From a bacterium (GTDB lineage: Bacteria; UBA8248): a stretch of DNA of 64,000 nt. This document shows positions 9,812 to 51,225 of this stretch, piece after piece. The translations under genes were made by a program, and so were the position numbers. The notes below the pieces were generated by a model. The model had not been told where the DNA came from and did not search any database. It worked only from the letters and a program-made list of their open reading frames with translations. The stretch covers positions 3,098,019-3,162,018 of the forward strand of contig OZ245330.1 in NCBI GenBank assembly GCA_965225985.1. Reading direction: 5' to 3'. Each line of letters opens with the position of its first letter. Within the stretch, counting starts at the first letter, position 1.

Positions 9812-11134
9812 TCACGATGTAAATCGGAAACCGCCGACCAGCGCTCCGGGCAGCAAGCTTCCCCGCATGGATCGGGAGGAGTAGGTGCCGCCGTCGGCGA
9901 TGAGATCGCGCTCGGCGGTCAGGCCCAAAAGGTTCTCGCCCAATGCACGATAGAGGGTTTCGTCGAAACGCATGACCGCGAGCGGGGCCTGAATTTCACC
10001 GCCCTCCACCCAAAGCGTTGCAAAGCGCGTGAGACCCGTAATCCGGCAGGCGGGGATGTCGGAAAAGTTGAGATACCACAGATTGTTGACGTACACCCCT
10101 CTCTCCAGCTTCGAGAGGACCCCGCTGGCGGAAACCTCCCCCGCCGTCATTTCGATGAACTGCGGCATCTCGCCCTCCGAAGCGCCGTTCGTCGCCACGC
10201 CATACTCCCGCGCGGACCGCGGCGAGACCAAGGCCTCGGAAAAGGCGCCGCCTTCGATAAGCGGGATGCGGGGGGGCCTCCGGAAACCCTGCTCCTGGAA
10301 ATCGGGCGAACGGCCCTCCCGGGACTCTTCGGTCAGATGGATCGATTTGCTGAGGAAGAAACCCTCTTCAAACATTTTCAAAAGGGGCGTCTTCTTGGTA
10401 CGGCAGGCCCGGAGGCCGAACCCGCCGTAGCTCACCAAATTCAAAAGCTCCCGAAGCGCCGCGGGCGCGAGGTAAACCCGGTATTCTCCGGGCGAAATGC
10501 GGCGGGGCGGGCGGGCGAGAACCTCAAGATGGCGCGCCGTCTTTTCCATTCGATGGCGAAACTCGGCGGGCTCCCACTCGGCCCCGGCGTACTCTCCCTT
10601 CGCGGCCTTATCGGCGGATCGGTACAGACTCCAATCGAGCCCAAAGCGAAACGTGGAAAACCAGTTCCGCTGCCCGAAAGAGTTTGCGAATCCCGCGTGG
10701 ATCCCTCCCGCCGCGTAGAAGCCGACGAGATCCTTCTCCCGGGCGGCCTCCAATACGGCCTCCGTCACATTCTGGGTGTCCGGAAGCCGATTTTCACTTC
10801 TCCATTCGCTGGAGCCGTCCTCGGTCGCAAAAAGAAGATGCGGATCCTCCGGAAGGATCGGCAGGATATCCCGAAGTTCCCCCAAGAGCCTCGAGACGGC
10901 GGGGCGATCCGCCTCGGCCCGGCCGCTGATGACGGTCTCGCCGCGGGCCCGCCGCCCATCATCGATCAATTCGAGAAGAAGATATCCCTGGAATACGGAA
11001 CCGGCCTGCCGGATTCTAGACCGGTTGAAGCGGACGAAATCCGAATCCTCCCCCCTATAAGAACAAAGGAGAATCTCACTTCCGCGCAGGAGGGAATTCG
11101 CCCAATCGGCGATGGCGTAGAAGAATTCTTTCAC
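9812..11134 (-). CDS. pmbA: PmbA/TldE-family metallopeptidase-like protein (peptidase U62 partner)
   Basis: 440 aa. It overlaps the tldD stop by 4 nt, has the PmbA_TldD fold pattern and lacks an intact HExxxH. Confidence 0.75.
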   Translation of the reverse strand: MKEFFYAIADWANSLLRGSEILLCSYRGEDSDFVRFNRSRIRQAGSVFQGYLLLELIDDGRRARGETVISGRAEADRPAVSRLLGELRDILPILPEDPHLLFATEDGSSEWRSENRLPDTQNVTEAVLEAAREKDLVGFYAAGGIHAGFANSFGQRNWFSTFRFGLDWSLYRSADKAAKGEYAGAEWEPAEFRHRMEKTARHLEVLARPPRRISPGEYRVYLAPAALRELLNLVSYGGFGLRACRTKKTPLLKMFEEGFFLSKSIHLTEESREGRSPDFQEQGFRRPPRIPLIEGGAFSEALVSPRSAREYGVATNGASEGEMPQFIEMTAGEVSASGVLSKLERGVYVNNLWYLNFSDIPACRITGLTRFATLWVEGGEIQAPLAVMRFDETLYRALGENLLGLTAERDLIADGGTYSSRSMRGSLLPGALVGGFRFTS

Positions 11135-12570
11135 CCCTGCTCTCCCCCGAAGACCTCGACGCCGGCGAAGAGACAGGCGGGCGAGGCGTGCCCTACGTTG
11201 ATCGCCTGGTTGGGCTCCCCCTTCCCGCAGTTGGGCGTTCCAAGGGCCTCAAACGTATCGCCGCCGCCCACCATCTTGAGGCTTCGCCAGAATTCGGGGG
11301 TGATGCCGCGGTAGCTTGGCTTTTTCGCCACCTGCGTCAGCCTTCCCCCTTCAATGAGCTGCCCCCACTCGCATCCAAACTGGAACTTGAGCCGGGAGTC
11401 ATCGATGGACCAGGAACAGTTGGTCTTCATGAGAATCCCCCTGTCCACGCCGGCGACCATCTCATCGAAACCCGAGCCCCCGGGTTCGATATTGAGGTTC
11501 GCCATCCGGTCGATGGGCGGGCGGTTCCAGTTGGTGGCGCGCGAGCAGGCTACTCCGGGAAGTTCCGCCCGGGCCTGGGAGATCAGCCCTCCGAGACCGC
11601 GGAGAAGAATACCCTCCCGGATGATGTACTCCTTCCGGGCGGGAACGCCCCAATCGTCGAAGCCGAAGCTCGCAAACTCCTCGGGGCGGGAAGGATCGAA
11701 CGTAACGTTTAAAAGATCCGAACCGAAGCGATAGCCTCCGAACATATCGCGCGTGACGAAGCTGGTCCCGGCGTAGTTCCGCTCGTCGCCGAGGATCCGG
11801 TCCAGTTCCAGGGGATGGCCGATGGACTCGTGGATTTGGAGAATCATTTGGTCGGGATCGAGGAGGAGATCCATCTTCTCCGAGGGACAGTTCGGGGCCG
11901 CGAGCAGCGCGAGCGCCTCCTCCGAAACACGGGGCGCGGCTTCAGCCAGATCGAACCCTTCCACCACCTCCCAGCCGCCCTGACGGCACCGGAGATGCCC
12001 CCCAAAAGTCCTCCGGACCGTTTCCGCCCCCGCGTTCGCGTATACGCCCATTCCCGGAAGAAGGTAGCGGAACCGCTGCCGGACTCGCCCTCCATCCGCG
12101 GTGATGAAGATGGTCTCCGCCTCTTTGTTGAACAGCGAGGCTTCCCAATCGGCGATCCGGTCGTCGGTCTTGAGACGCTGGTTCAAATCCCGGAGCAATT
12201 CCACTTTTTCCCGGAGCGGCACTTCGCTCCAGGCAACTTGGGTGGGGGTCTCATACTCGCCCTGCGACCGGGGAAAAACGATACGGGAATAATCCACCGC
12301 GCCGTGCCGGGCGCAAACCCGCGCCCATGCCGCCGCGTCCTCGACGGCTCTTGCCAGGCCCTTTTTCGTCAGATCGCAGGTGGCGCCATACCCCATTCCG
12401 CCTCCCTGAACGACGGTGACCATCGCACCGAGATTTTCCGACGACGCTACGGGCTGAAGGACATCCCGCCGCACCGAAAGGCTTTCCTTCTTCTCGCGGA
12501 CAAGCCGAAACGAGCAATAGCCCGCCTTGGGGAAAAGCTCCCGGCAACGCTCCTCAAGCCCGTTCCACAT
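11131..12570 (-). CDS. tldD: TldD-family metallopeptidase (peptidase U62)
   Basis: 479 aa. 'HESIGHPLELD' zinc motif and the C-terminal GxC...Gx glycine-rich TldD region. Confidence 0.82.
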   Translation of the reverse strand: MWNGLEERCRELFPKAGYCSFRLVREKKESLSVRRDVLQPVASSENLGAMVTVVQGGGMGYGATCDLTKKGLARAVEDAAAWARVCARHGAVDYSRIVFPRSQGEYETPTQVAWSEVPLREKVELLRDLNQRLKTDDRIADWEASLFNKEAETIFITADGGRVRQRFRYLLPGMGVYANAGAETVRRTFGGHLRCRQGGWEVVEGFDLAEAAPRVSEEALALLAAPNCPSEKMDLLLDPDQMILQIHESIGHPLELDRILGDERNYAGTSFVTRDMFGGYRFGSDLLNVTFDPSRPEEFASFGFDDWGVPARKEYIIREGILLRGLGGLISQARAELPGVACSRATNWNRPPIDRMANLNIEPGGSGFDEMVAGVDRGILMKTNCSWSIDDSRLKFQFGCEWGQLIEGGRLTQVAKKPSYRGITPEFWRSLKMVGGGDTFEALGTPNCGKGEPNQAINVGHASPACLFAGVEVFGGEQG

Positions 12571-23488: not shown

Positions 23489-23514
23489 GGCGGGATCTCC
23501 TTTTTCCATGACTG

Positions 23515-24651
23515 CTAGGTGAACTGGATCTGGATCTCGTCGTCCCCGGTGTTCCGCGCCATCGAGAAGGGGACCTCGTAGGTGAGGAGGCCGTCCCGGT
23601 CCCCGAGGCCGATGTCGCCGTACTGGCACTTGGGGGCGGTGACGGTGCAGATGTTCCCCGCCGCCTGGCCCACCTGGACGCTGAGGGCGAGCTGGTTCTG
23701 CGCCTCCCACTTGGCCCAGACGTCCTCGGTGGCCTTGAGGACGGCCTCGGGGTCGAACGAGCCCGCCGGGGCGCGGCCGGTGACGAGGGAGTTGATGTGC
23801 CCCCCGGTCTGGTTCGCGCTCCGGCGCAGGGCGACGGTGTTGTTCATCGAGAAGGTGATGGACGCCGCGTCGAAGTTGAACCCGCCGAAGGAGAAGGCCG
23901 CCACCAGGGCGGGCTCGGGAAGCTGGGCGTCGTAGGCGCTCCCGGCGACCAGGGAGGCGTCCGAGACCCGGAAGTCCGCCGCGGTGAACTCCCAGTCCAC
24001 CGTCGGGACGGCGTCGAGGGGGACGTTGAGGGTGAAGGTGCCCATGCAGCCCATGTAGAGGACGCGCAGGCCGTCGATGAAGGCCGTGACGGCGCAGCGG
24101 GTGAAGCTCGACTTGTCCGAGATGGGGGCGTAGGTGACCGAGGTGCCGCCCACGACGGTCTCGCTCATCCCGCACGCCTTGAAGAGGATGCCGTAGTCCG
24201 GCGCGGTGCCCGCCGCGCCCGAGCCGCGCAGCTCGGCGGTGAAGGAGATCCGCGCCGAGCGTCTTCCCGCGACGAAGGGGAAGGGCGAGAGGCTGTCGTC
24301 CCGCACCGCCCGCTCGAGGCGCTCGACCTCGAGGTCGTGCGAAAAATTCCCCGCCCGGAAGAGTTCCGCCGCCGGGGCGGGCCGCTCGAGGAGGTAGACC
24401 GTGGTCGAGTCGGGCACCGGGCTCAGGGTGCCCACCGTCAGGGTGTCGCTCGCCGCGTCGAAGTCGGTGACCGAGACCTACTGGCCCACCCCGACGCCCC
24501 GGATGGTGCGAAGGGTCGAGCCGTTCCAGAAATCGTCCGCCTCGGTGCGCGCCGCGTCCACGACGGTGGTGGCGGTGGCGCTGTCCATCGTTCCTTCCAA
24601 CTCCTCGGTCGCGCCGATGATCTGGCGCTCCATCAACAGGGTATCGCCCAT
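23515..24651 (-). pseudogene. Phage major tail (tube)-like protein interrupted by an in-frame TAG at 24478-24480
   Basis: MGDTLLMERQIIGATEEL...TIRGVGVGQ[TAG]VSVTDFDAASDTLTVGTLSPVP... continues in the same frame for another 306 codons. Confidence 0.5.
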
Positions 24652-24716
24652 CTCTTTGCCTCTCCCTTTCTTTTAGGAAAAATGCTCTCGTCCTTTGAAT
24701 GCGGCTCTCCCCGGCC

Positions 24717-25236
24717 TCACGCCCGGGTGATCCGCTCGAAGGCCTGGAGGCGGATCTCGGCGTAATGGCAGAGAACCCCCCCGAAGGCCCGCGGTTCGAT
24801 GACGTCCACCTGGGGCGGCTGAAGGCGCTCCAGGGTGGGGACCTTGCTTCGGAGCCGGAGGGCGTCGTTCGATCGGAAGCGGTCGCAGACCGCCTCGATG
24901 AGGTCCTGGAAGACGAGCTCGCTCGCCGCGCCGTCCTTCAGCCCCATGATCCCGGCGAGGAGGAAGGTGTGGGCCCGCCGGTTCACCCCCGCGGGGATGA
25001 GTCCGCCCGGGGCGCTCGCGCCGAATCCGCCGAGCGCCTCGCTCACCCGCTCGCGCGTGACGATCCAGCCGCGAATTTGATCCCCTCCGTCCGGCGCCTC
25101 CCAGCGGAACAGGCCGATGTACTTCGCCATGTCGGCGGCGGTCCGCTGGTAGAGGTGCACCCTTCCGGCGTTTTCCACCGCCTCGATTTCGGCGGCGACC
25201 GCCGCGCCGATATCCTTGTAGAATGAGCTAGCCACG
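24717..25236 (-). CDS. Phage head-tail joining / neck-region hypothetical protein
   Basis: GTG start overlaps the upstream stop (GTGGCTAG). 173 aa, VASSFYKDIGAAVAAEIEAV.... Confidence 0.45.
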
Positions 25237-25743
25237 CAGCCTCCCCGCGATGTCGGCGCCGAGCCTTTCCACCCGGCGCGCAATGGGCCCCATGCTTTTT
25301 TCGAGGGCGTCCCGGAACATGTGCCGGCCCGCGGTGCCCCTCCGCCCGATGGCGCGCGCGATGAGGAAGGCCGCCGAGCGGGCCTCCCCGCCGCTGACCC
25401 CCAGCACCCGCTCCACCCAGCCGTAGAGGGAGGAGCCGGGCCCCGAGGGGGGCCGCCGGCCCGGGCCGCGCCCCTCCTCGACGGGAAGGGCGTAGGCGAG
25501 CGGGGTGGCGACGGTGCCGCGAAGCGAATCGAGCGCGCTCCCGCGCACCTCGGATACGATCGAGCCCCGAAGCGCGCCCGTCGCCCCCCGGGGGGTACCG
25601 GCGGCGGCGCGTGCATGAATCATCTCCACGATGTCTCCCACGGCCCGCGCGGCCTCCTCGAAAACGACGCCCGCGGGATCGGCCCCATCGCCCGCGAGGG
25701 GGCCGGCCCGCTCAAAGGTGAGACTCCAATCTCCTTTCGCCAT
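25228..25743 (-). CDS. Phage hypothetical protein (head-tail connector region)
   Basis: 172 aa starting MAKGDWSLTFERAG.... It is the C-terminal segment of the long spurious ORF 25228..27276. Confidence 0.45.
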   Translation of the reverse strand: MAKGDWSLTFERAGPLAGDGADPAGVVFEEAARAVGDIVEMIHARAAAGTPRGATGALRGSIVSEVRGSALDSLRGTVATPLAYALPVEEGRGPGRRPPSGPGSSLYGWVERVLGVSGGEARSAAFLIARAIGRRGTAGRHMFRDALEKSMGPIARRVERLGADIAGRLRG

Positions 25744-25757
25744 TCCAGCCTCCCGCG

Positions 25758-26480
25758 CTAGCGCTCCCCGGGGCCGCCGTGGGTCAGGTACCGGCCCCGC
25801 CGCTGGGAGAGCGCCTCGTCCCAGTCGAGGGAGTGGCCCGCCGGGCCCGCCGTATCCCCCTCGCGCTGGCCGATGTGGGCCTGGTACTTGCGCTCGAGCT
25901 CCTTGGCGAGCCGGGTGTACTCGGACGCCTTGCTCGGGTAGCTCACCGCGTCCGCCCCGATGAGGGGCTCGGCGCTCTGGGCGAACCGCCGGGCGAGGAT
26001 GTGGCACCCTTCCGCCGCGGCGAGCCAGGCCGCCGCGATCAGGTCGTTCGCCGGGATGCTCGTTGCGGCGTCGTCCGCGGTGTGCGGCGCCGCGTAGAAG
26101 AGCCGCGCCGTCTCCCCGGTGCCGGGGGTGAGCCGCAGGAGGCGAAGCTTCGCCGCCGAGGTCGCCGCCCCGTAGATCGTCCAGTCCCGCCGCTGCAGGT
26201 AGACAGGCTCGCGCTCCCCCTGGGGGTACTCGACCGCGAGCACCGTCGAGAGGGCCGCGTCCCAATCCGCGGGCAGGCTGAAGTCGTACGCCGCACCGTC
26301 GCCGGCGTAGTCCTGAAAAGCCTTCCGCGGCCGGTCCTTGCTGTAGCGGGCGAGGGCCGCACGGACGAGGTCCGCGAAATCCGCCTCGGCCAGTGCGACC
26401 TCGGGCGGGATCTCGCCCGACTTCAAAAAGACCTTCACGTCCGCGATGATGGTTTGTCGTGATGACACTGCGTTCTCCAC
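25758..26480 (-). CDS. Phage hypothetical protein
   Basis: Clean 240-aa ORF (MENAVSSRQTIIADVKVFLKSG...). Confidence 0.55.
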   Translation of the reverse strand: MENAVSSRQTIIADVKVFLKSGEIPPEVALAEADFADLVRAALARYSKDRPRKAFQDYAGDGAAYDFSLPADWDAALSTVLAVEYPQGEREPVYLQRRDWTIYGAATSAAKLRLLRLTPGTGETARLFYAAPHTADDAATSIPANDLIAAAWLAAAEGCHILARRFAQSAEPLIGADAVSYPSKASEYTRLAKELERKYQAHIGQREGDTAGPAGHSLDWDEALSQRRGRYLTHGGPGER

Positions 26481-26513
26481 GGGACTGGGGCGGGGTAAAT
26501 TCCCCGCCCGCCC

Positions 26514-26808
26514 CTAGGTTTTGACCGCCAGCTTCGCCTCGAAAGTGAACGAGGGGCTCGACCCTCCGATGTCCCACGAGAGACGGAACCACTTCCCGAG
26601 GTTCGTCAGCTTGACGAGGGTCTTGCCCGTACCCGTGATTTGCGCCGGCTCGGTGTGGATGTAGCCGAGCGCGTCGTCCGCCGGCCCGGCTTCGATATCG
26701 AAATCGAGGGTGGGTGAACCGCCCGACGTCGAAGGGCGTGCTCTCGCCGTCCGCCGTCCGGGCCGCTGAGGCGGCCAATGTGATCGTCTTGGTCCTTCTG
26801 TCCGCCAT
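26514..26808 (-). CDS. Phage small structural protein, apparently frameshifted
   Basis: MADRRTKTITLAASAARTADGESTPFDV... shifts near 26735-26745 into ...PTLDFDIEAGPADDALGYIHTEPAQITGTGKTLVKLTNLGKWFRLSWDIGGSSPSFTFEAKLAVKT*. Confidence 0.4.
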
Positions 26809-26818
26809 GATCGGGCTC

Positions 26819-27099
26819 CTAGAAATCGAGGTAGAGCTTCGCGCCGGCCCCTGTGAGGACCGCGTGGAGCCCCACGCCGAAGCGGATGCCGCCCGGCGCC
26901 AGGTCCAGGCTCTTGGACACTCTCCGGCGGGCGCGTTGACGGCCCGCAGCACGGTGCCGGAGGCCGCCGTGTTGTCGTACAGCGTGACAGTGGCCGCCGC
27001 GCCGGAGCCCGCCGTGAGAATTCCGCCCATGAGCTTTCCGTTCCCCGTCGTCGCGGTGCCGGTGGCGGTAACCTCTGTCGTTTCGACTGGATGGATCAT
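26819..27099 (-). CDS. Phage small structural protein, apparently frameshifted
   Basis: MIHPVETTEVTATGTATTGNGKLMGGILTAGSGAAATVTLYDNTAASGTVLRAVNAPAGE... shifts near 26925-26935 into ...VSKSLDLAPGGIRFGVGLHAVLTGAGAKLYLDF*. Confidence 0.4.
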
Positions 27100-27145
27100 C
27101 GTGTACCTCCCTTTCCCGTTCTGGGCCGTCCCGGGCCGCCGCGGG

Positions 27146-27571
27146 CTAGTTGGGCGAGAATTCCACCGTGACCGCGAAGGGGGGCAGCGCCATTCCACTT
27201 CCCACCTGCTCGACCTGGAGTCCGAGCTGGTTTCCGGTGGAAACCGAGAGGGGGCTGGCCGGGCTGTAGAGGTCATAGCCCGCGACTCCGATGTCGTTTC
27301 CGCTCGTCAGGTCATAGTTCGCAAGCTCGGCCGCGCCGGCGCCGTTCGTCCCGCGGTCGATGAGATTCAGGTTCTTGGTGTTCGTGTTCTGGCCGGTGAC
27401 GGCCGCGCCGGGCACCACCCGAACCTTCTCGATCTTGCAATTCACCGGGGCTTCGAAAATCACGTAGGTGGTGCTGGCGTCCGCGGCGGCGGCGGCGGCG
27501 GCGGCGGCGGCCGGGGAGACGACCGTCTTGTCGTGGGTTCCCGGGACGTCGCAAGCCTGTCTGTTGCTCAT
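27146..27571 (-). CDS. Phage head-associated hypothetical protein (decoration-like)
   Basis: 141-aa ORF with an Ala-run and beta-rich composition. Preceded by a CCCCAAAAATCACAGATTTTGAGG element. Confidence 0.45.
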   Translation of the reverse strand: MSNRQACDVPGTHDKTVVSPAAAAAAAAAADASTTYVIFEAPVNCKIEKVRVVPGAAVTGQNTNTKNLNLIDRGTNGAGAAELANYDLTSGNDIGVAGYDLYSPASPLSVSTGNQLGLQVEQVGSGMALPPFAVTVEFSPN

Positions 27572-27696
27572 TTTTTTCTCCTTTCTCTAAACGGGTCGAA
27601 AAGAGACCCTTTCGCAGGGACGAGGGCCACCCCAAAAATCACAGATTTTGAGGACCCGGGGCACGCCTCGCCCCTGCGAGTTCAATTGACAATCGG

Positions 27697-29805
27697 TTAT
27701 GCCGGGGCGCCGCGGTAGAATCCCCGGTAGTCGAGGACCGCGCCGCCGTAGACGTGGCGGATCTTGTAGCGCACCTTGTCCGCGTTGAATCCGCTTCCGG
27801 CCAAGGGGTTGTCCTCGACGAAGAGCTCGGGATCCTGCATGTCCTCGAGGAAGCCGATTTCGACGGTGTCCACGAGCAGGGGATCCGCGGCGAGGTACCA
27901 GTTGTTCGCGTCGGTGAGCTCCGGCACCCATAGGGGCTCGACCCCGAGGCGGTTGATCACGCTCGGCTGGGTGGAGTTCTCCCCCGAGATGACTTTCACC
28001 GCGGACTGGGTGATGTCGAACGCCTCTTCGAGCAGCTCGGTCGGATGGAGCAGGTACTTCGGGTACACCTGAGAGGCCATCTCGACCCCCGACTCGCCGT
28101 AAAACGTTTGCTGGCCCATCGACTTGATGCCGGTGATGACGTTTGCGTAGGTGAGCACGTTGGTCGATGTGTTGTTGTGGTTGGCGTGGAAGAGCGCCAC
28201 GCCGTCGTAGATGTTGGTGGCCGAGGCGAGGAACCCGAAGACGAAGTTGTTCAGGGTCCGCTGGGCCGCGCGCGCGAGGCGGCGCGGGATCAACCGGATG
28301 GATCCCATGTCGTCGTTCTGGATCATCTCCCAGGTGAGGTCCTCGATCCCGCCGCGCTTCGAAACCGCGTAGGTCACCTCCTCGTCGGTGGGCGAGGCGA
28401 GGGTGGGATAGGTGGCCTGCTCGGAAACCGCCTGCAGGTCGCCGTAGCCGCCCACCCGGATGCGGCGGTTGGTGCGGAAATCCTTCACCGGCACGATGGC
28501 CGAGACGATCTTCCGCCAAAGCTGAAAGCGGTCGTCGCGGAAATCGCGGAGGAGGGCCCGCCGGATCGAGTCGCCGAACGCCTCCCCCCAGGTGCTGGTG
28601 TCGAGCGCGGCTGAGAGCCGGCGGATGCCGTTCCAATTCTCGGCGGCCCGGTGGTAGTGAAAGGTCTCGGCGAAGAACAGATGTGGCGTAAGCCGGTGGC
28701 CGGTGAAGTCCTGGAAGGCCTCGCCCAGGAAGCGATAGGGCCGGTGGCCGTCCCGGACCGTCGGGCTGGACTCCCAAAGGCCGTCCAGTGCCGCCTTCTT
28801 CCGATCAATCTCGTCCCGGACCACCTCGGCCCGCCGCCCAAAGCCCTTCAGCGCCCCGCTCGCGGTGAGCTTCTCCAGGGCGGACGACTCCAGCCGCAGC
28901 GCCTCGTCGATCTCCTCTCCGGAGCACACGCGGCCGGTGAACTGGGTCCGGACCTTTTCCTTGACGGGCTCGGGAAGGGGAGACTCCGCGAGCCGGCAGG
29001 TGAGCCGGTCCCGGCTCTCCGCAGCACGCAACGACTCCTGCAGACTTCCGATTTCCTGTTGCATCGCTTCCTCCTCACTTTGGATCAGATGGGGATTTTC
29101 GTTTTCCATGGCGTCTCCTTTCTGCGCGAGATCCGAATCGAGGCCCGCTCTCTCGCAGGCCGAGATCAGCTGCTGCCGCGTCCATCTCCCGCCGAGTCTG
29201 GCGGCGGCCTCCGGTACGGCCGCCCTGAGTTTTCTGAACAATTTCTCCATCGCCACCACCTCTGTATCCGGCCGATCGGCCGCGGCGAGGTCCAGGAGGC
29301 CGCCCCCCAGCCGGCCCTTGTGGACCACGTCCACCGAATTGACCGCAACGATTTTTTGAAAATGCAGAACGAGGCCCCCCTCCTCCTCCCGGTACTCTGT
29401 CTGGGCCACCACATCGAAAGAAAAACCGAAGGGCTCCTCGATCCCGCGCGCGAGGGCGTCCTGGGCCAGGGCCTGGAACCAGCCGGCCGACCGGGCCACG
29501 GCGAAGGTGCTGTGGAGGTCCGATTCGACCATCCGCACGTTCCGGTGCCAGCCGACGAGGGCGCGGATGTCGGGCGCGCCGCCCTCGGCGTGATTCGCGA
29601 ACGCCTGCGCCCCCTCGAAAAGGGGCGCGGCCTCGCGGAGCACCTCCCGGGACAGGAACCAGCGCCCCTCGTGCGAGTAGCCGGGAGTTGCGATCCGCAC
29701 CTCGAAATCCCACGGTGTGTTGTCCGGGGCGGCGCCGGAGGGGACGCCCGCGGCCCGGAGAACCCGGCCCGTGAGCCGCAACCCCCGCTTTTCGCCCGGG
29801 GGCAT
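27697..29805 (-). CDS. Phage prohead protease / scaffold / major head subunit fusion (Mu gpT-like C-terminus)
   Basis: The long ORF runs to 30051, but the Arg-rich N-terminal stretch looks non-coding, so the start is probably the internal M at about 29805. Protease-like N-terminus (PWDFEVRIATPGYSHEGRW), coiled-coil middle, and a C-terminus ending ...KVRYKIRHVYGGAVLDYRGFYRG, typical of Mu-like major head proteins. Confidence 0.55.
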   Translation of the reverse strand: MPPGEKRGLRLTGRVLRAAGVPSGAAPDNTPWDFEVRIATPGYSHEGRWFLSREVLREAAPLFEGAQAFANHAEGGAPDIRALVGWHRNVRMVESDLHSTFAVARSAGWFQALAQDALARGIEEPFGFSFDVVAQTEYREEEGGLVLHFQKIVAVNSVDVVHKGRLGGGLLDLAAADRPDTEVVAMEKLFRKLRAAVPEAAARLGGRWTRQQLISACERAGLDSDLAQKGDAMENENPHLIQSEEEAMQQEIGSLQESLRAAESRDRLTCRLAESPLPEPVKEKVRTQFTGRVCSGEEIDEALRLESSALEKLTASGALKGFGRRAEVVRDEIDRKKAALDGLWESSPTVRDGHRPYRFLGEAFQDFTGHRLTPHLFFAETFHYHRAAENWNGIRRLSAALDTSTWGEAFGDSIRRALLRDFRDDRFQLWRKIVSAIVPVKDFRTNRRIRVGGYGDLQAVSEQATYPTLASPTDEEVTYAVSKRGGIEDLTWEMIQNDDMGSIRLIPRRLARAAQRTLNNFVFGFLASATNIYDGVALFHANHNNTSTNVLTYANVITGIKSMGQQTFYGESGVEMASQVYPKYLLHPTELLEEAFDITQSAVKVISGENSTQPSVINRLGVEPLWVPELTDANNWYLAADPLLVDTVEIGFLEDMQDPELFVEDNPLAGSGFNADKVRYKIRHVYGGAVLDYRGFYRGAPA

Positions 29806-30092
29806 TCCCCGGCCGGGGCCTTTGTTGGCCCCCGTTGCTGCGGGGAACAGGGGGGAGCGCGCCAAGCGCTTTCTTCCGGCTCTGAGAAATCGGTTCAACA
29901 CGGGTTTCTCTCCTCTCTTTCCTTTTGCTTCTCTCCCATCAGGGCGTTCGGGCGCCGCGACGGGTTCCCATTTCCCGGATCTTCCGGCCCGCCGCGGAAG
30001 GCCCTTTCGACCGACTCCCGCGGGGAGGGAAAAACCCGTGCGGCCGGCCACCCCGGCCGCGCGAGGAGGAATCTAAATGAAAAAGGGACTGG

Positions 30093-36440: not shown

Positions 36441-36688
36441 GGGGGGGAATTTTTGGCCCTGAGCAAGGCCTGCGACTACCTTGTTTCGAATGAAGTGGCG
36501 GAGGAATTCTCCGCTTCTTTTTCTTTTTTTCTCGGTTCGCTTCTGGCGCAATTCCTGGACGCGTTGGTCTCGACTTGCCCTCCCTGGTTGCTGCTTCTCC
36601 TCTTTCTTGACCCTCGAATTCGCAACGCTTAGACTTTGCGGGATTTTCCTTACATTTTTGAGGAACCTGAAGGCCGGAGGACCGCTCA

Positions 36689-39600
36689 TGCAGTGCCCCC
36701 GCTGCCAAGTGGAAGCTCCGTCCGACGCGGAGTTCTGCCCCGAGTGCGGGGCGAAGCTCGCGGCCACCTGCGTTCAATGCGGCACCGAAAACGCCCCCAC
36801 CCATAAGTTTTGCAAAAAATGCGGCCAATCCTTGGCCCAGGCCGACGGCGCAGATTCGGCGGCCGCCTCGAAGTTCGCCTCCCCCGAGTCCTACACCCCC
36901 AAGTACCTCGCCGAGCGGATCCTGACCTCGAAGGCGGCTTTGGAGGGCGAGCGCAAGCAGGTGACTGTCCTCTTCGCCGACCTCAAGGGCTCGATGGAGC
37001 TTCTGGCCGACCGCGACCCCGAGGACGCGAGGGCGCTCTTGGATGCTGTCCTCACCCGGATGATGGAAGCTGTCCACCGCTACGAGGGCACAGTCAATCA
37101 GGTCATGGGCGACGGGATCATGGCGCTGTTCGGCGCGCCGCTGGCGCTCGAAGACCACGCGCTCCGCGCCTGCTATGCCGCCCTCGCCATCCAGAATTCG
37201 ATCAAGTCCTTCGCTGAGGAAGCCCGCAGGGAGCACGGCGTCGAGGTGCACATCCGCGTGGGGCTCAACTCCGGCGAGGTCGTGGTGCGGGCCATCGGCT
37301 CGGACCTCCGTATGGACTACACCGCCGTGGGCCAGACGGTGAACCTCGCCTCCCGGATGGAGCAGTTGGCCCAGCCCGGCAGCATTAGGCTTACAGCCGA
37401 CACCCTGCGGTTCGCCGAGGGGTTCATTCAGGCCGAGCCCTTGGGCCCGGTCCCCATTAAGGGGATGAGCGAGGCTGTCGAGGTCTTTGAGCTAACGGGC
37501 GCGACCTCGGGCAGGACGCGCTTTCAGGCCACCGCCGCGGGCGGTCTCACCAAGTTCGTGGGACGCCGGAACGAACTTGAAGACCTTCAGGGCGCGCTCA
37601 ACAAGGCAGAAGAAGGACATGGGCAGATCTTTGCCACTGTCGCCGAGGCGGGCGTAGGCAAATCGCGCCTCTACTGGGAGTTCACCCGCTCGCACAGAAC
37701 GAAAGACTGGATGGTCATCGAGAGCGGTTCGGTCTCCTACGGCAAGGCGACGGCCTACAAGCCCGTCATCGATCTCTTGAAAGCCTATTTCTCGGTCGAG
37801 GATTCTGACGACCACCGCCGTATCCGGGAAAAAGTGACGGGCAAGGTCCTGACCCTCGATGAATCGCTCACGCCGGCGATTCCCCCCGTTCTCTCTCTTC
37901 TCGAAGTGCCGATTGAGGACGAAGGCTGGACGAATCTCGACCCGCCCCAGCGGAGACAGCGGACTCTCGACGGCGTGAAGGGTCTCCTTCTCCGCGAGGC
38001 GAAGGTCCAGCCGCTCTGCCTCGTATTCGAGGACCTTCACTGGATAGATACCGAGACGCAGGCGCTGCTCGACTCTCTGATCGAAAGCCTGCCGGGTGCG
38101 CGGGCGCTTTTGCTGGTCAACTACCGGCCCGAGTACGAGCACGGATGGGCGAACATGAGCTTCTACACGAGGCTTCGCCTCGACCCGCTTTCCTCGGAGG
38201 GAGCGGCGGAGCTTCTGGCCGCTATTCTCGGCGGGGATCCTGCCTTGGACCCGCTCAAGAAGCTCCTCATCGAGCGCACCGAGGGAAATCCCTTCTATCT
38301 CGAAGAATCCGTCCAGACCCTCATTGAGAGCGAAGCCCTGGTGGGGGCTCCCGGCGCCTATCTGCTGACGGAGGAGGTTTCCAAGATACAGGTGCCCTCC
38401 ACCGTTCAGGCGATTCTCGCCGCCCGCATGGACCGCCTTCCGCCTGAGGAAAAACGCCTGCTTCAGACAGCCTCTGTAATCGGAACACATATGTCTTATC
38501 CTTTGCTCGCAGCTATTGCCGAGATGTCCGAGGAAGAGCTGAACCGGGGCCTTTCGGCCCTACAGGCTTCCGAGTTCCTCTACGAGACGAACCTTTTTCC
38601 GGAGCGCGAATTCACCTTCAAGCACGCCCTGATACACGAGGTGACTTACGGGAGTCTGGTCCAAGAGACCAAACGGGCCCTCCACGCGCTGGTGATCGAA
38701 GTATATGAGAGGGTCTACCCTGACCGCCTGAGCGAACACCTCGATACGCTCGCCCACCACCTTGTTCGGGGTGAGGTCTGGAGCAAGGCGTCCAAGTATT
38801 TTCGCCCGGTCCTCAGCATGTCCCCCGATATCTGGGGGACGGGTGATCATATGCAAACCATTGAGTTGGGCCAGCGCGACCTGGCGTCGGCGGCGAATTA
38901 TCGGAATTTCGGCCTGGAAGTGATGGCCAGCCTCCGCGTTGGCCTGGCCTGCCATGCGTTGGGGGATTATCCTCGGGCGGAGGAGTTGTTTGGGCGGAAC
39001 GTGGCAATGCTGGAAGGCGACCTGACCCGCGAACGCTTCGACCTGCCCGGCATCGCCTCCGTGCTCTCTCGCACCGGGCTGGTCCTATGCCTCGCCGAGG
39101 AGGGAAAGTTCGCCGAAGGAGTCGTGTGCGCTGAAGAAGCGGTCCTGATCGCCGAAGGGGCAAATCACCCGTACAGCATCGCTGTAGCGCAGTTCGGCCT
39201 TGGGTTCTTATATTTCTTCAAAGGGGATTACGCTAAAGCCATTCCCGTGCTCGAGGATGGCCTGGCCTGTGCGCAGGCAGCGGACATCCCGCAGTTGTTC
39301 CCGCTTATTGCATCGCCCTTGGGCGCCGCATATGCGCGCGGCGGGCGGCTGTCGGAAGCTCTGCCCCTCTTGGAGAAGGCTGTGGAAGAAGCCGCTGCTA
39401 CTAAACTCATGATCCATCAGTCGCTCCGGACTGCCTGGCTGGGCGAGGCCCATCTGCTGGCCGGGCGGCTGGACGAGGCGAGTCAATTTGCCCAGCGGAG
39501 CCTGGAACTCTCCCGCAGGCACAAGGAGCGGGGCCATGAGGCGTGGGCCCTCCGGCTCCTCGGCGAGATCGCCTCGCGTTGTGATCCCCCGGACGCCGAG

Positions 39601-39822
39601 AAGGCAGAAGACCACTATCGTCAGGCCCATCCTTTGGCCGAGGACCTGGGGATGCGCCCCCTGCTGGCGCTCTGCCTCCTCAGCTCAGGCTCCCATTACC
39701 GCCGGGTGGAGCGGGCGGAGCAGGCCCGGGCCGAACTGTGCGCAGCGGTCGAGCTCTTCCGCTCCATGGGGATGTCTCACTGGCTGCCCCGGGCGGAAGC
39801 GGAGCTCGCCGAGGCGGGATGA
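36689..39822 (+). CDS. Double zinc-ribbon / class III adenylate-guanylate cyclase / STAND (AAA_16) ATPase / TPR protein
   Basis: Two CxxC...CxxC ribbons at the N-terminus. Cyclase catalytic-domain blocks (VTVLFADLKGSMEL, GDGIMALFGAP). Walker A 'AEAGVGKSRL'. C-terminal TPR-like repeats. Confidence 0.82.
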
Positions 39823-47420: not shown

Positions 47421-49763
47421 GTGCAATGTCCCGCCTGCCAGCATGAAAACCGGGATCGAGCGCACTTTTGCGATCAGTGCGGCGCCAGGTTAGAGCGATC
47501 CTGCCCCCACTGCGGAAACGCCGCCCGGCCGGGCGCCGCCTTTTGCGACCAATGCGGAGGGGCTCTCGAATCCCCCGCCCCCGCCGCTTCCCCTCCCCCG
47601 GGCCTGGAGGCGCGGGCGGAAGCCTTCGCCAGCCGGATCCCCAGCTACACCCCCGCGCACCTGGTCAAAAAAGTGCTGACCTCCCGGGGCGCCATCGAGG
47701 GAGAGCGCAAGCAGGTGACCGTCCTCTTCGCGGACGTTTGCGGCTTCACCGGGCTCTCGGAGCAGCTGGACCCGGAAGAGGTCCACGGCCTCATGGACCG
47801 CTGCTTCGAGATCCTGATGCGCGAGATCCACCGCTTCGAGGGGACCATCAACCAGTTCACCGGGGACGGGGTGATGGCCCTCTTCGGCGCGCCCGTCGCC
47901 CACGAGGACGCGCCCCAGCGCGCCATCCGGGCGGCCCTGGGCATCCAGGGGGCGCTCCGCCAGGAGGCGCTCCGCGAACAAGGCGCGGATTTCCCGGGCG
48001 GGGAGGGCGCGGCGTTTCAGATGCGCATCGGCATCGACACGGGCACCGTGGTGGTCGGCAAGATCGGCGACGACCTGCGGATGGACTACACCGCCGCGGG
48101 GGACACCACGAACCTGGCCGCCCGCCTCCAGGCCGCCGCCGAGCCCGGCACCGTGCTGGTCAGCGAGAACACCCACCGCCTGACGAAGGATTTTTTCGAG
48201 TTCTCCCACGCCGGGCCGATCGAGGTGAAAGGGAAGAAAACCCCGGTGGCCGTCTACGGCGCGATCCGGCCCAAGGCGGTGCGCTCGCGCATGGAGGCGG
48301 CCGCGCGGCGCGGGCTCACCCCCCTGGTGGCCCGGGACGCGGAGATCGGCCACCTCATGACCGCCTTCGCCAAGGTCAAGGAGGGCCACGGCCAGATCGT
48401 CTCGCTGGTGGGCGAGGCCGGGGTCGGCAAGTCCCGCCTGGCGCACGAGTTCAAGAAGCGCCTCCGCGGCGAGGACATCACCCTCTTCGAGGCCTACTGC
48501 CCCTCCTACGGCCATGCCACCCCCTACCTGCCCGTCGCCCAGATCATAAAAGGCTACTGCGGCATCACGGACGCCGACAACGAGGTCAAGATCCGGGAGA
48601 AGGTGACATCGGCCTGAAGCCGGTGGGTCTCGTGGGGTCACCACGAGGGGCTGGACATCACAAAAAGGCTCGAATACGTCATCGCCTATCTCAGCAACAT
48701 CATCTCCATCCGGGTGAAGGACGATCTGCTGCAGGGCATCAGCCTGGAGGATCGCAAGCGGGAGAGCTTCGACGGGCTGAAGGCCATGTTCGTGGGCGAG
48801 AGCCAGGAGAAGCCCGTCGTGGTCATCCTGGAGGACATCCACTGGATCGACAAGATCTCCGAGGAGTCCTTCGACTACCTGAGCGCGAGCGTTCCCAAGA
48901 ACCGGCTCCTCGTCCTGGCGCTCCACCGCCCGGAATACCGGTGTCCCTGGGGGACGAGCTCGAGCTACCTTCGGATTCCCGTCGAGCCGCTCTCCCCCGC
49001 CGAGAGCGACGAGATGATCCACCGCGTGCTGGAGGTCCCGGAGGTGGGCCGGGAGGTGAAGGAGCTCGTCCAGGCCAAGAGCGAGGGAAACCCCTTCTTC
49101 CTGGAGGAGCTCATCCTGGAGCTGCGGGAAGCCGGGTGGATCCGGACGGAGAAAAACGCCTGCCGCATGGTGGGCGCCGGGGCGAAGGCGCAGGTGCCCG
49201 CCACCGTCCAGGACGTCATCATGGCCCGCATCGACCGGCTGGCGGATCCCCTGAAGCACACCCTCCAGCTGGCCGCCGTGATCGGCCGCGAGTTCCCCTT
49301 CGCCGTCCTGGAGAAGATCGCCGATCCGGCCCACCAGCTGGAGCCCTCGCTCCAGTCCCTCCAGCATTCGGAGTTGATTACGGAAAAGAACCTCTTCCCG
49401 GAGCTGGAGTACATGTTCAAGAACGTCCTCACCCAGAACGTGGCCTACAACAGCCTGCTCGTTCAGCGCCGCCGCGAGCTCCACACCCGGATCGCCGCCG
49501 CCATCGAGGAGCTCAAGCGGGACAGCCTGGAGGAGCACTTCGAGGTTCTGGCCCACCACTACAAGAGCGGCAACCAGCCCGGGAAAGCCTTCGAATTCCT
49601 GGCCCGCGCGGGAGAGAAGGCGATGGAACTGCACTCGGTGGAGGTGGCCGAGAGCTACTACAACGACGCCATCGCCATCGCCGCCGAGCTGGACCCTTCA
49701 GACGCGGCGAGGGAGAAGGGGCGCGAGCTGAAGTCGAGGCTGCGGGAAATCGGCACGTACTAA
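47421..49763 (+). pseudogene. Second zinc-ribbon/adenylate-cyclase/STAND/TPR paralog, interrupted by one in-frame TGA (48615-48617); otherwise a single frame
   Basis: ORFs 47421..48617 and 48714..49763 share a frame. Cyclase blocks (VTVLFADVCGFTGL, GDGVMALFGAP), Walker A GEAGVGKSRL and TPR repeats are present. The sequence reads KVTSA[TGA]SRWVSWG.... An extended -10 promoter (TGGTATAAT) lies at about 47303. Confidence 0.7.
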
Positions 49764-49786
49764 TCCAATTTTTGAAAGGGCGCGCG

Positions 49787-50572
49787 ATGAGCGAAAAAGT
49801 CTCCATACCGGCAGTGAACGTTTCGGGCCTCCGGGAAGCGGCCCGGCAGGAGTACGCCGAGGTGGCGGGCGACCCCCACAAGGGGTTCCACTTCCACACC
49901 GGAAGAGTGCTGGCGGCAATTCTCGAATATCCAGAAACCTGGCTGGAGAGCCTCCCCGAGAGCGCCGTCGAGTCGCTGGCGGGCACCGGCAACCCATTCT
50001 CCCTGGGCGGGATCCGGGCCGGCGAGCGCGTCGTGGACGTCGGCTGCGGGGCAGGCTTCGACAGCTTCCTCGCCGCGGGCTTCACCGGGCCCTCCGGCCG
50101 CGTCATCGGGGTGGAAATGACGCGGGAGATGCTCCAAAAGGCCCGCGGCGGCGGCGCCGGGAGCGGTCTCGCCCACCTGGAATTCAAAGAGGGCTTCGCT
50201 GAGGAGCTGCCCGTCCCGGACGGGTGGGCCGACGCCGTCATCTCCAACGGCGTGCTCAACCTCTGCCCGGACAAGCACCGGGTGTTCGGGGAGCTGCACC
50301 GCGTGCTCAAGCCGGGGGGGCGGATCCAGATCGCCGACATCCTGGTGCAAAAGCCCGTTCCCGAGGAGGCGAAAGAAGACATCGATCTTTGGACGGGGTG
50401 AATCGCGGGGGCTCTGCTGGAGGCAGAGCTGGAATCGGTCGTCACCCAGGCCGGATTCGAGGGTTTCGAGATCACCTGGCGGAAGGATGTCTTCGCCGGG
50501 GCGCCGCAGGACTCCAGCGCCGCCGCCTTCGGCACCCTGGGCATCAACTACCGCGCCCGCAAGCCCGCCTAG
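49787..50572 (+). CDS. ArsM-like SAM-dependent methyltransferase with an in-frame TGA (50399-50401) at a conserved Cys position; candidate selenoprotein or disrupted gene
   Basis: Methyltransferase motifs (VVDVGCGAGFD, VISNGVLNLCPDK). Reads ...DIDLWTG[TGA]IAGALLEAELESVVTQAGFEGFEITWRK..., where family members have 'GCIAGA'. A hairpin GCTCTGC-TGGAG-GCAGAGC starts 9 nt after the TGA. Confidence 0.65.
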
Positions 50573-50595
50573 ACCGAAGGGTGGGGGCGCAAAAC

Positions 50596-51225
50596 GTGAC
50601 CCGCGACCCCGTCCGGCGGGAGTACTCCCGCCTCGCGGCCCGCTACGACAGGAGATGGTCCTCCTTCAACGAGGCGACGGTCGCGGCCACCCTCGGGCGA
50701 ATCTCGGTCTCGGGCCGGGAGCGGATCCTCGACGCGGGCTGCGGCACGGGAAACCTGATCCTCCGCCTGCGGGAGCGCTGGCCCGGGCTCGCGTGCTGGG
50801 GGGCCGACCTCAGCGGCGAGATGCTGCGGGTGGCGAAGGGAAAGCTCGCGGGTCGGGCGCCGCCGCTGATCCAGGCCGACGCGGAGCGCCTGCCCTTCCC
50901 CGGCGCCTCCTTCGACATCGTCACCTCGTGCAACGCCCTTCACTATTGCCCGCGGCCCGCGCGGGCGCTCGCCGAGTTCCGGCGCGTCCTCCGCCCGGGC
51001 GGGCGGCTCGTCCTCACCGACTGGTGCCACGACTACCTCAGCTGCAAGCTCTGCGACGCTTTTTTGACCCTCTCCAACCGGGCGCACAGGCGGGCCATGG
51101 GCACCCGCGCGTGCGCGGAGGCGCTGCAGGAAGCGGGGTTTTCCCTGGAAAACATCGATAGTTACAAGGTCAGCTGGCTCTGGGGCCTGATGACGGCGCG
51201 GGCCTCGAAGGCCGCTTCAAGCTGA
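50596..51225 (+). CDS. Class I SAM-dependent methyltransferase
   Basis: ILDAGCGTGNL, LIQADAERLPFPGASFDIVTS, LRPGGRLVL. Confidence 0.72.
   Translation: MTRDPVRREYSRLAARYDRRWSSFNEATVAATLGRISVSGRERILDAGCGTGNLILRLRERWPGLACWGADLSGEMLRVAKGKLAGRAPPLIQADAERLPFPGASFDIVTSCNALHYCPRPARALAEFRRVLRPGGRLVLTDWCHDYLSCKLCDAFLTLSNRAHRRAMGTRACAEALQEAGFSLENIDSYKVSWLWGLMTARASKAASS

Follow-up and report, generated by a model that had tools for sequence, protein, structure and literature searches.

A conserved in-frame UGA, very probably a selenocysteine codon, in an ArsM-like methyltransferase gene, and a candidate second site in the gene upstream

Is the TGA that interrupts a methyltransferase gene of a bacterium of the lineage UBA8248 a stop codon, an error, or a codon for selenocysteine (Sec)? 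The gene lies in a stretch of 64,000 nucleotides (GenBank assembly GCA_965225985.1, contig OZ245330.1, positions 3,098,019 to 3,162,018), hereafter the window, whose own numbering is used throughout and whose features are collected in Table 1. An initial annotation, made from the letters alone, had described a frame that reads through a TGA at 50399-50401 into an ArsM-like C-terminus and had proposed a selenoprotein. Translation confirms the frame exactly. It opens with the ATG at 49787, ends with the TAG at 50570-50572, and contains one in-frame TGA only, at codon 205, in the context ...EDIDLWTG[TGA]IAGALLEAELESVVTQAGFEGFEITWRKDVFAGAPQDSSAAAFGTLGINYRARKPA (or, in a shorter excerpt, ...DIDLWTG[TGA]IAGALLEAELESVVTQAGFEGFEITWRK). 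Based on the comparisons described below, this TGA is very probably a Sec codon decoded through a selenocysteine insertion sequence (SECIS), and the product appears to be a one-selenol relative of ArsM.

When a Cys is placed at codon 205, the protein matches the Pfam family Methyltransf_31 at 3e-29, as well as Methyltransf_11 and Methyltransf_25; the class I S-adenosylmethionine (SAM)-dependent methyltransferase domain of ArsM and AS3MT is present. The closest match in the PDB is CmArsM (4fr0/4kw7; 2e-25), an alignment that pairs the TGA with Cys224 (GECLGGAL versus TG-U-IAGAL), while the positions of Cys72 and Cys174 are occupied by T and G, respectively. Full-length homologues carry Cys in the TGA column (LWTGCIAG versus LWTG[U]IAG), and this is so in all 86 Cys-form sequences aligned. 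As the initial annotation had it, the TGA replaces the Cys of the family motif G-C-[IV]-A-G, which is the metalloid-binding thiol Cys224 of CmArsM (PMC6138428).

The TGA is conserved in near-identical copies and in more distant orthologues. The identical truncated product of 204 amino acids, and hence the TGA, is found on four independently assembled contigs (ENA, Logan) with 99.7-100% nucleotide identity to the window, and the 90%-identity cluster of this product has further members on contigs of 2.8-3.7 Mb, among them contigs of 2.84, 3.36, and 3.68 Mb; ENA ERZ28763718 ctg124344 also has the gene. In tblastn alignments with more distant relatives (L005/L006 and L007 at 74-77% amino acid identity, L008 at 69%), the TGA is kept and the conserved C-terminus follows in frame. 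The pattern YTN TGG ACN GGN TGA RTN GCN GGN G was then scanned against one genome per bacterial or archaeal species and matched at least 120 loci; among the matches listed, 118 are full-length homologues with 43-67% identity that tblastn aligns across the TGA. Two others, L027 (Paraburkholderia fungorum) and L112 (Amylibacter), are chance pattern matches with no homology and were left out of the 118. The orthologues with TGA, at least 118 in number, span at least 9 phyla: carriers belong to Actinomycetota, Acidobacteriota, Gemmatimonadota, Chloroflexota, Pseudomonadota, Myxococcota, Desulfobacterota-type lineages, and candidate phyla. Many are from Acidimicrobiia, Gaiellales, Thermoleophilia, Vicinamibacteria, Gemmatimonadota, and Chloroflexota, and some from Alpha- and Betaproteobacteria; there are also Myxococcales, an Adiutricales metagenome-assembled genome (MAG), Eisenbacteria, Dormiibacterota, and the isolate Pseudonocardia asaccharolytica DSM 44247. 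Two of the MAGs, MFD10007.bin.3.89 (L026, L095) and MFD05567.bin.2.201 (L068, L125), hold two copies of the methyltransferase each.

The sequence beyond the TGA behaves as coding sequence. Over the 54 codons 3' of the TGA, the ratio of nonsynonymous to synonymous substitution rates (dN/dS) between the window and nine orthologues is 0.16-0.40, and the proportions of nonsynonymous and synonymous differences (pN and pS) resemble those of the part upstream. The codons that follow the TGA are under purifying selection and are translated as protein. In the window gene, 56 codons separate the TGA from the TAG stop. An ordinary stop codon that is itself a TGA occurs in 73 of the 120 listed orthologues about 56 codons past the Sec codon, at the conserved ...ARKP end. 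A second Sec of the UXPK type was sought at the C-terminus, and the terminal TGAs proved to be normal terminators where the conserved protein sequence ends. In one Gemmatimonadota MAG (L074) the frame stays open for 283 codons past the Sec codon and runs into a second class I methyltransferase (MNRKAHWERVYK...); this is either a fusion or a lost stop codon.

A hairpin follows the TGA. The initial annotation described a 7-bp stem, GCTCTGC paired with GCAGAGC around a UGGAG loop, beginning 9 nt after the UGA, and all of these details are correct. Its placement was said to be that of a bacterial SECIS element, and it agrees with the published model. The bacterial SECIS (bSECIS) model calls for a loop of 3-9 nt, a stem of 4-16 bp, a G in loop positions 1-2, a distance from UGA to loop of 16-37 nt, and a minimum free energy (MFE) of -7.5 kcal/mol or lower (PMC13188914). 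The window hairpin fits every one of these, with a loop of 5 nt, a stem of 7 bp, a G at loop position 2, and a spacing of 16 nt. With the SECIS of the Escherichia coli fdhF type it has in common a stem-loop inside the open reading frame (ORF), 3' of the UGA, and a G in loop positions 1-2; its spacing is at the short end of the 16-37 nt range, and the likeness is one of geometry, with no sequence resemblance claimed.

That the helix itself is conserved can be seen from an ungapped alignment of 121 distinct sequences comprising the TGA and the 39 nt after it. The scan pattern had fixed columns 1-13 of this alignment only, and the helix columns 14-31 were free to vary. Standard pairs between columns 13-19 and 25-31 make up 95.4% of the 847 cells, and this share falls to 26-46% when the partner column is slid by 1-3. 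In 81 compensatory cells both sides have changed, and none of 500 shuffles reached the observed values. For example, at pair 14:30 there are 81 sequences with CG and 34 with GC; at pair 15:29 there are 59 with UA, 33 with CG, and 5 with GC; and pair 18:26 occurs as GC, CG, UA, and AU. RNAalifold independently returns the same 7-bp helix. The helix is kept across different encoded peptides (ALLEAEL versus GLPCAGW) and so is not a side effect of coding. For a Cys control, the same pattern with TGY was run on metagenome contigs, where it returned 120 loci, and 118 Cys-form sequences were compared. In the same register these form 3.3-4.0 of the 7 pairs, versus 6.68 of 7 in the TGA forms, of which 91 of 121 form all seven. 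The hairpin is specific to the Sec forms and is absent from the Cys-form homologues. The covarying hairpin and the TGA orthologues together support the selenoprotein candidate of the initial annotation, and for the Sec codon and its bSECIS this support is about as good as sequence comparison can give.

In the established bacterial Sec pathway, SelB delivers Sec-tRNA(Sec) to the recoded UGA. By extension, the hairpin 9 nt 3' of the UGA would act as a bacterial SECIS: SelB-GTP with Sec-tRNA(Sec) would bind it and supply Sec at the UGA, where it would compete with release factor 2. After Sec, translation would proceed for 56 codons to the TAG and yield a SAM-dependent methyltransferase of 261 residues. 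Its sole reactive chalcogen would be a selenol, placed where CmArsM has its substrate-binding Cys224, beside the methyl group of SAM. Both the dependence on SelB and the actual incorporation of selenium are what we infer from this pathway.

Several observations weigh against the Sec reading. Folded alone, the window hairpin has an MFE of -17.1 kcal/mol and z-scores of -1.6 (47 nt) and -2.6 (42 nt), that is, it is just 1.6-2.6 standard deviations better than shuffled sequence. With a single-sequence signal so modest, the window sequence alone is not decisive and it is the comparative evidence that decides. About 19 of the 121 orthologues have a loop of the CCCGU type, and the one of these that was folded as a single sequence lacks the canonical helix. 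Neither the 64-kb window nor the orthologous loci, with flanks of 8 kb, yielded a gene for tRNA-Sec, selA, selB, or selD: in the window, which has no tRNA gene at all, there was no match with Rfam (gathering thresholds) or ARAGORN; ARAGORN detected no tRNA-Sec at the 120 orthologous loci; and tblastn of the window and these loci with E. coli SelD and SelA queries, a weak test, returned nothing. Pfam searches of ten further ORFs of the window revealed no sel genes, and instead a phage capsid protein, a tail-tube protein, an M20 peptidase, DoxX, and a major facilitator superfamily (MFS) protein. There is also no conserved ars-operon context in a neighbourhood clustering of the 118 loci. On the other side, the adjacent gene has a second conserved UGA followed by a SECIS-like hairpin (see below), which, if real, argues that the organism decodes Sec.

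The alternative that survives best is that the TGA is a true stop. The gene would then make a product of 204 residues, the hairpin would serve regulation or pausing, and the downstream frame would be kept for another purpose or translated separately. A hairpin by itself is no proof of SelB binding, and no Sec machinery was found in the 64-kb window, both of which leave some room for this view. However, the short product would be missing the C-terminal portion of the methyltransferase fold, which all Cys forms conserve, the stop would sit exactly on an invariant Cys, there is no in-frame ATG, GTG, or TTG shortly 3' of the TGA, and the downstream codons evolve as coding sequence in the same frame. 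We regard a true stop as improbable. Less probable still is a nonsense mutation in a recent pseudogene whose downstream frame is intact for lack of time. The public gene callers, which end the protein at the TGA, agree with it; but the TGA occupies the same codon in at least 118 species-level genomes of many phyla, the dN/dS of the downstream part is low, and the hairpin covaries and is restricted to TGA forms; these comparisons refute a pseudogene.

Genome-wide reassignment of TGA to Trp or Gly, in place of site-specific Sec, scarcely comes into question. In its favour, the JGI/IMG record P0002 (from L008) has a W at the site and a stored DNA that does not translate to the stored protein, which suggests that the TGA may have been translated there as Trp. 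Against it, TGA is the commonest stop codon among the genes of the window and in contig L001, and it terminates 73 of the 120 listed orthologous genes at the conserved C-terminus. Moreover, the genome has 65% G+C, and the homologues have an invariant Cys at this position, neither Trp nor Gly. Since TGA is a normal terminator elsewhere, genome-wide reassignment is excluded; the codon is read in two ways within 170 nt, as expected of SECIS-directed recoding. A sequencing or assembly error at a TGC or TGT codon, for which nothing but prior probability speaks, can be dismissed as hardly credible, given that four independent assemblies, which differ in sample and pipeline (ENA, Logan), have the same TGA, as do many other genomes; this recurrence, together with the downstream purifying selection, disposes of both the error and the nonsense substitution that the initial annotation had left as alternatives.

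With the TGA read as Sec, it becomes apparent how the family is misrepresented in databases. Public gene calls cut the window protein at the TGA, at 204 amino acids, and the record MEE9240270.1 is likewise 204 residues long. P. asaccharolytica DSM 44247 (L047) has a 200-residue 'arsenite S-adenosylmethyltransferase' and a 198-residue paralog, 'hypothetical protein PA7_40830'; both stop at the TGA, and the database matches included no full-length entry from this organism. The records concerned include P0248, P0295, and P0125, in the range of 198-204 residues, and P0002 with its W. The stand-alone form stays below the cut-off of every NCBIfam model. The practical value of the present case is thus a well-supported Sec codon in a family that gene callers and GenBank systematically truncate at about residue 204.

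How does the protein relate to selenoproteins already known? An arsenite (S-adenosyl)methyltransferase selenoprotein has been catalogued since 2007-2008, in the row of NF008823/PRK11873 (PMC2398784, PMC9312934, PMC13188914). The GOS study counted 8 Sec and 245 Cys sequences of arsenite methyltransferase (PMC2398784). A 2026 review lists it with the motif UxxG, the model NF008823, and the reference Fomenko et al. 2007 Science, and in the table of that review the entry stands ahead of the block 'predicted with high confidence' (PMC13188914). The U-I-A-G of the window protein is the catalogued UxxG motif, and the protein is therefore an instance of a known selenoprotein type, to which it adds a member. 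It shares with that type a SAM methyltransferase domain of the ArsM superfamily, Sec in U-x-x-G, and a bacterial SECIS within the ORF. It differs in that the window protein and 108 full-length Sec orthologues lack the other cysteines of ArsM; these Sec forms score 215-226 bits versus the NF008823 cut-off of 263, a comparison that does not include the catalogue example WP_011987699.1.

The missing cysteines bear on function. All arsenite methyltransferases have four conserved cysteines (Cys44, Cys72, Cys174, and Cys224 in CmArsM), and all four are needed for As(III) methylation; Cys174 and Cys224 hold the arsenical and are needed for MAs(III) (PMC6138428). To compare the cysteine columns, the 108 full-length Sec forms were aligned with 70 canonical Cys forms and with CmArsM. 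Every one of the 108 Sec forms has G in the Cys174 column, and 105 of them have V, T, or I in place of Cys72 (T in the window protein). At the N-terminal CC pair they have instead a gap and a Thr, the latter inside a conserved HFHTGR motif. Only the Cys224 position is kept, as Sec. Relative to canonical ArsM/AS3MT (CmArsM, PDB 4FR0/4KW7), the fold and the SAM motifs are the same and the Sec is homologous to Cys224; in contrast, the equivalents of Cys44, Cys72, and Cys174 are T or a gap, T or V, and an invariant G. Without these cysteines the canonical ArsM mechanism, with its chelation of As(III), cannot operate. The canonical proteins share the motif LWTGC[IV]AG, yet none of the 118 listed TGA homologues is canonical.

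Scores of the NCBIfam models draw the same line. With NF008823 (cut-off 263 bits), two canonical controls reach 341 and 376 bits, whereas Sec and Cys members of the one-thiol clade score 215-239. With NF041537 the order is reversed, with 222-257 bits for the one-thiol clade and 175-183 for canonical ArsM proteins. The best matches of the 261-residue protein are ArsM-type models, three of them curated selenoprotein families, and all are below cut-off: NF041537 (ArsM/AhpD) at 225 bits, NF008823 (arsenite methyltransferase) at 215, and NF047649 (methyltransferase/UXPK-star) and NF041536 (ArsM/DUF2284) at 203 each. The models NF041537, NF041536, and NF047649, attributed to Haft & Tolstoy 2025 (PMC13188914), align about 215 methyltransferase residues, including the Sec site. 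Unlike the window protein, which is stand-alone, these families have a second domain (AhpD, DUF2284) or a UXPK-stop tail with more Sec. No further domain follows in the window protein, whose last residue is number 261 (...YRARKPA, TAG), and its 203-225 bits compare with cut-offs of 460-575 for the fused families. The initial label 'ArsM-type' holds only in a loose sense: the other conserved cysteines are absent, and the score is below the cut-off of the ArsM hidden Markov model.

These alignments and scores define, at the level of sequence, a widespread sister clade of the true arsenite methyltransferases, in which Cys and Sec forms are interchangeable and the other ArsM cysteines are lost. 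Arsenite is a doubtful substrate for the window protein. More likely, the one-selenol enzyme would act on a substrate that needs a single thiol or selenol ligand, such as a dimethylarsenite-type compound or a sulfur, selenium, or tellurium species. Arsenic-resistance genes, which would be supportive of an ArsM function and not defining for it, are not among the neighbours, which are the cyclase/AAA_16 gene and an unrelated methyltransferase. A generic MFS transporter, present at 36 of the 118 listed loci, is the sole neighbour to recur; otherwise there are an OsmC-like protein and shadow ORFs. Many Cys-form homologues with 61-66% identity (P0006, P0008, P0013, P0021, P0033, P0038, P0055, and others) have a C-terminal TusA-like domain (PF01206), which contains a conserved Cys. 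The presence of this domain in the clade suggests carrier or relay chemistry of sulfur or selenium rather than of arsenite. All of the Sec forms recovered belong to the non-canonical clade, and the label 'ArsM selenoprotein' may hide an enzyme with another substrate.

Table 1. Features of the methyltransferase locus and of the gene upstream of it (positions in the window).
Feature	Position	Strand	Basis or remark
Double zinc ribbon + class III cyclase + AAA_16 NTPase + helical C-terminal part	47421..49763	+	its end lies 24 nt ahead of the methyltransferase gene
Second in-frame TGA, candidate Sec codon (residue 399) of the cyclase/AAA_16 gene	48615..48617	+	kept in L250, L251
SECIS-like hairpin, 8-bp stem UCUCGUGG/CCACGAGG, loop GGUCA	48628..48648	+	UGA-to-loop 18 nt
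GTNACNTCNGCNTGAAGYNNNTGGGTNTCNTGGGG-type pattern			cyclase/AAA_16 gene
Shine-Dalgarno-like GAAAGGG	49774..49780	+	6 nt before ATG; read from the sequence; putative function
Class I SAM-dependent methyltransferase gene (ArsM-like, one-selenol clade), 261 residues	49787..50572	+	translation, Pfam, NCBIfam, PDB
UGA read as selenocysteine (probable), codon 205	50399..50401	+	CmArsM Cys224 / hAS3MT Cys206 position
Bacterial SECIS-type hairpin GCTCTGC-TGGAG-GCAGAGC	50411..50429	+	50411-50417 pairs with 50423-50429; loop UGGAG 50418-50422
Second, unrelated class I methyltransferase gene	50581..51225	+	gene call on L001; GTG start 9 nt past TAG

The gene immediately upstream, which encodes a cyclase/AAA_16 protein, raises the same question a second time. 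Its in-frame TGA at 48615 is also present in L001-L003. The AAA_16 match (residues 301-498) crosses the TGA, and a true stop would thus leave Walker A and Walker B on separate polypeptides. The hairpin that follows has an MFE of -21.3 kcal/mol and a z-score of -2.6, and its loop opens with GG; it occurs as a single copy in the 64-kb window and is not a repeated element there. TGA and hairpin lie together inside an insertion of 11 codons (U-S-R-W-V-S-W-G-H-H-E) that is missing from a paralog in the window and from eight database homologues, and no Cys homologue with the insertion was found. An exhaustive search with the segment after the TGA yielded relatives with about 65% identity that had been called as separate proteins beginning just 3' of the TGA. 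They are on contigs L250 (GCA_041570855.1) and L251 (a JGI metagenome), both with about 48% G+C, and read ...KVTSA[TGA]SNWVSWGHHEELD..., with the hairpin UUUCGUGG-GGUCA-CCACGAAG. The TGA and the loop are the same as in the window, and one C-G pair of the stem has become U-A by compensatory change. In the window, the 32 codons 3' of this TGA have no canonical start and yet show 69-75% protein identity to the orthologues and a pN/pS of 0.28-0.36. TGA is a normal stop on L251. In L252, from a third cyclase lineage, the sequence stops short of the TGA region.

Sec insertion is the leading explanation for the TGA at 48615, and we would put it at about an even chance; its support comes from only three lineages, two of them closely related. 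The text of the 2026 catalogue does not contain the words cyclase or AAA, and its sole ATPase entry is a cation-transporting ATPase (PMC13188914); a literature search on a cyclase/AAA_16 selenoprotein returned nothing relevant. A wider reading may be proposed tentatively, and its chance of being right falls slightly short of even. According to it, the locus is a tandem of two selenoprotein genes, the cyclase/AAA_16 family is an uncatalogued one in which TGA and SECIS were inserted jointly and not by conversion of a Cys codon, and the methyltransferase is a one-selenol enzyme that does not act on arsenite. If true, the cyclase/AAA_16 protein would add a signalling protein, and possibly a new family, to the selenoproteome, and its Sec site would have been made by insertion of a UGA-plus-SECIS module.

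The cyclase/AAA_16 family is very large, with 84,762 cluster representatives at E <= 0.001. The window paralog (36481..39822), about 8 kb upstream, is an uninterrupted ORF of 1113 codons that is 39% identical and has additional tetratricopeptide (TPR) repeats. On the other side of the ArsM-like gene, the second methyltransferase gene is probably co-transcribed with it, as judged from the spacing. Its product has weak NCBIfam matches only (DVU_1556 family, 93 bits versus a cut-off of 155).

Elsewhere in the window there are phage-type genes for a tail tube protein (23518-24435, minus strand) and a capsid-domain protein of 784 residues (27700-30051, minus strand), and a GpA_ATPase terminase fragment at about 43600 (L001 3812-4276). 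The segments at about 23500-30050 and 43600 lie between genes for coenzyme F420 and the methyltransferase locus and look like a prophage or what is left of one. The F420 genes occupy positions 1 to about 9800 (L129 5700-14398, reversed) as a coenzyme F420 biosynthesis cluster with CofC, CofD, the F420 ligase CofE, radical-SAM CofG/CofH, an FrhB/FdhB-like protein, and a nitroreductase, and a TldD/PmbA pair at 9812-12570 adjoins this cluster.

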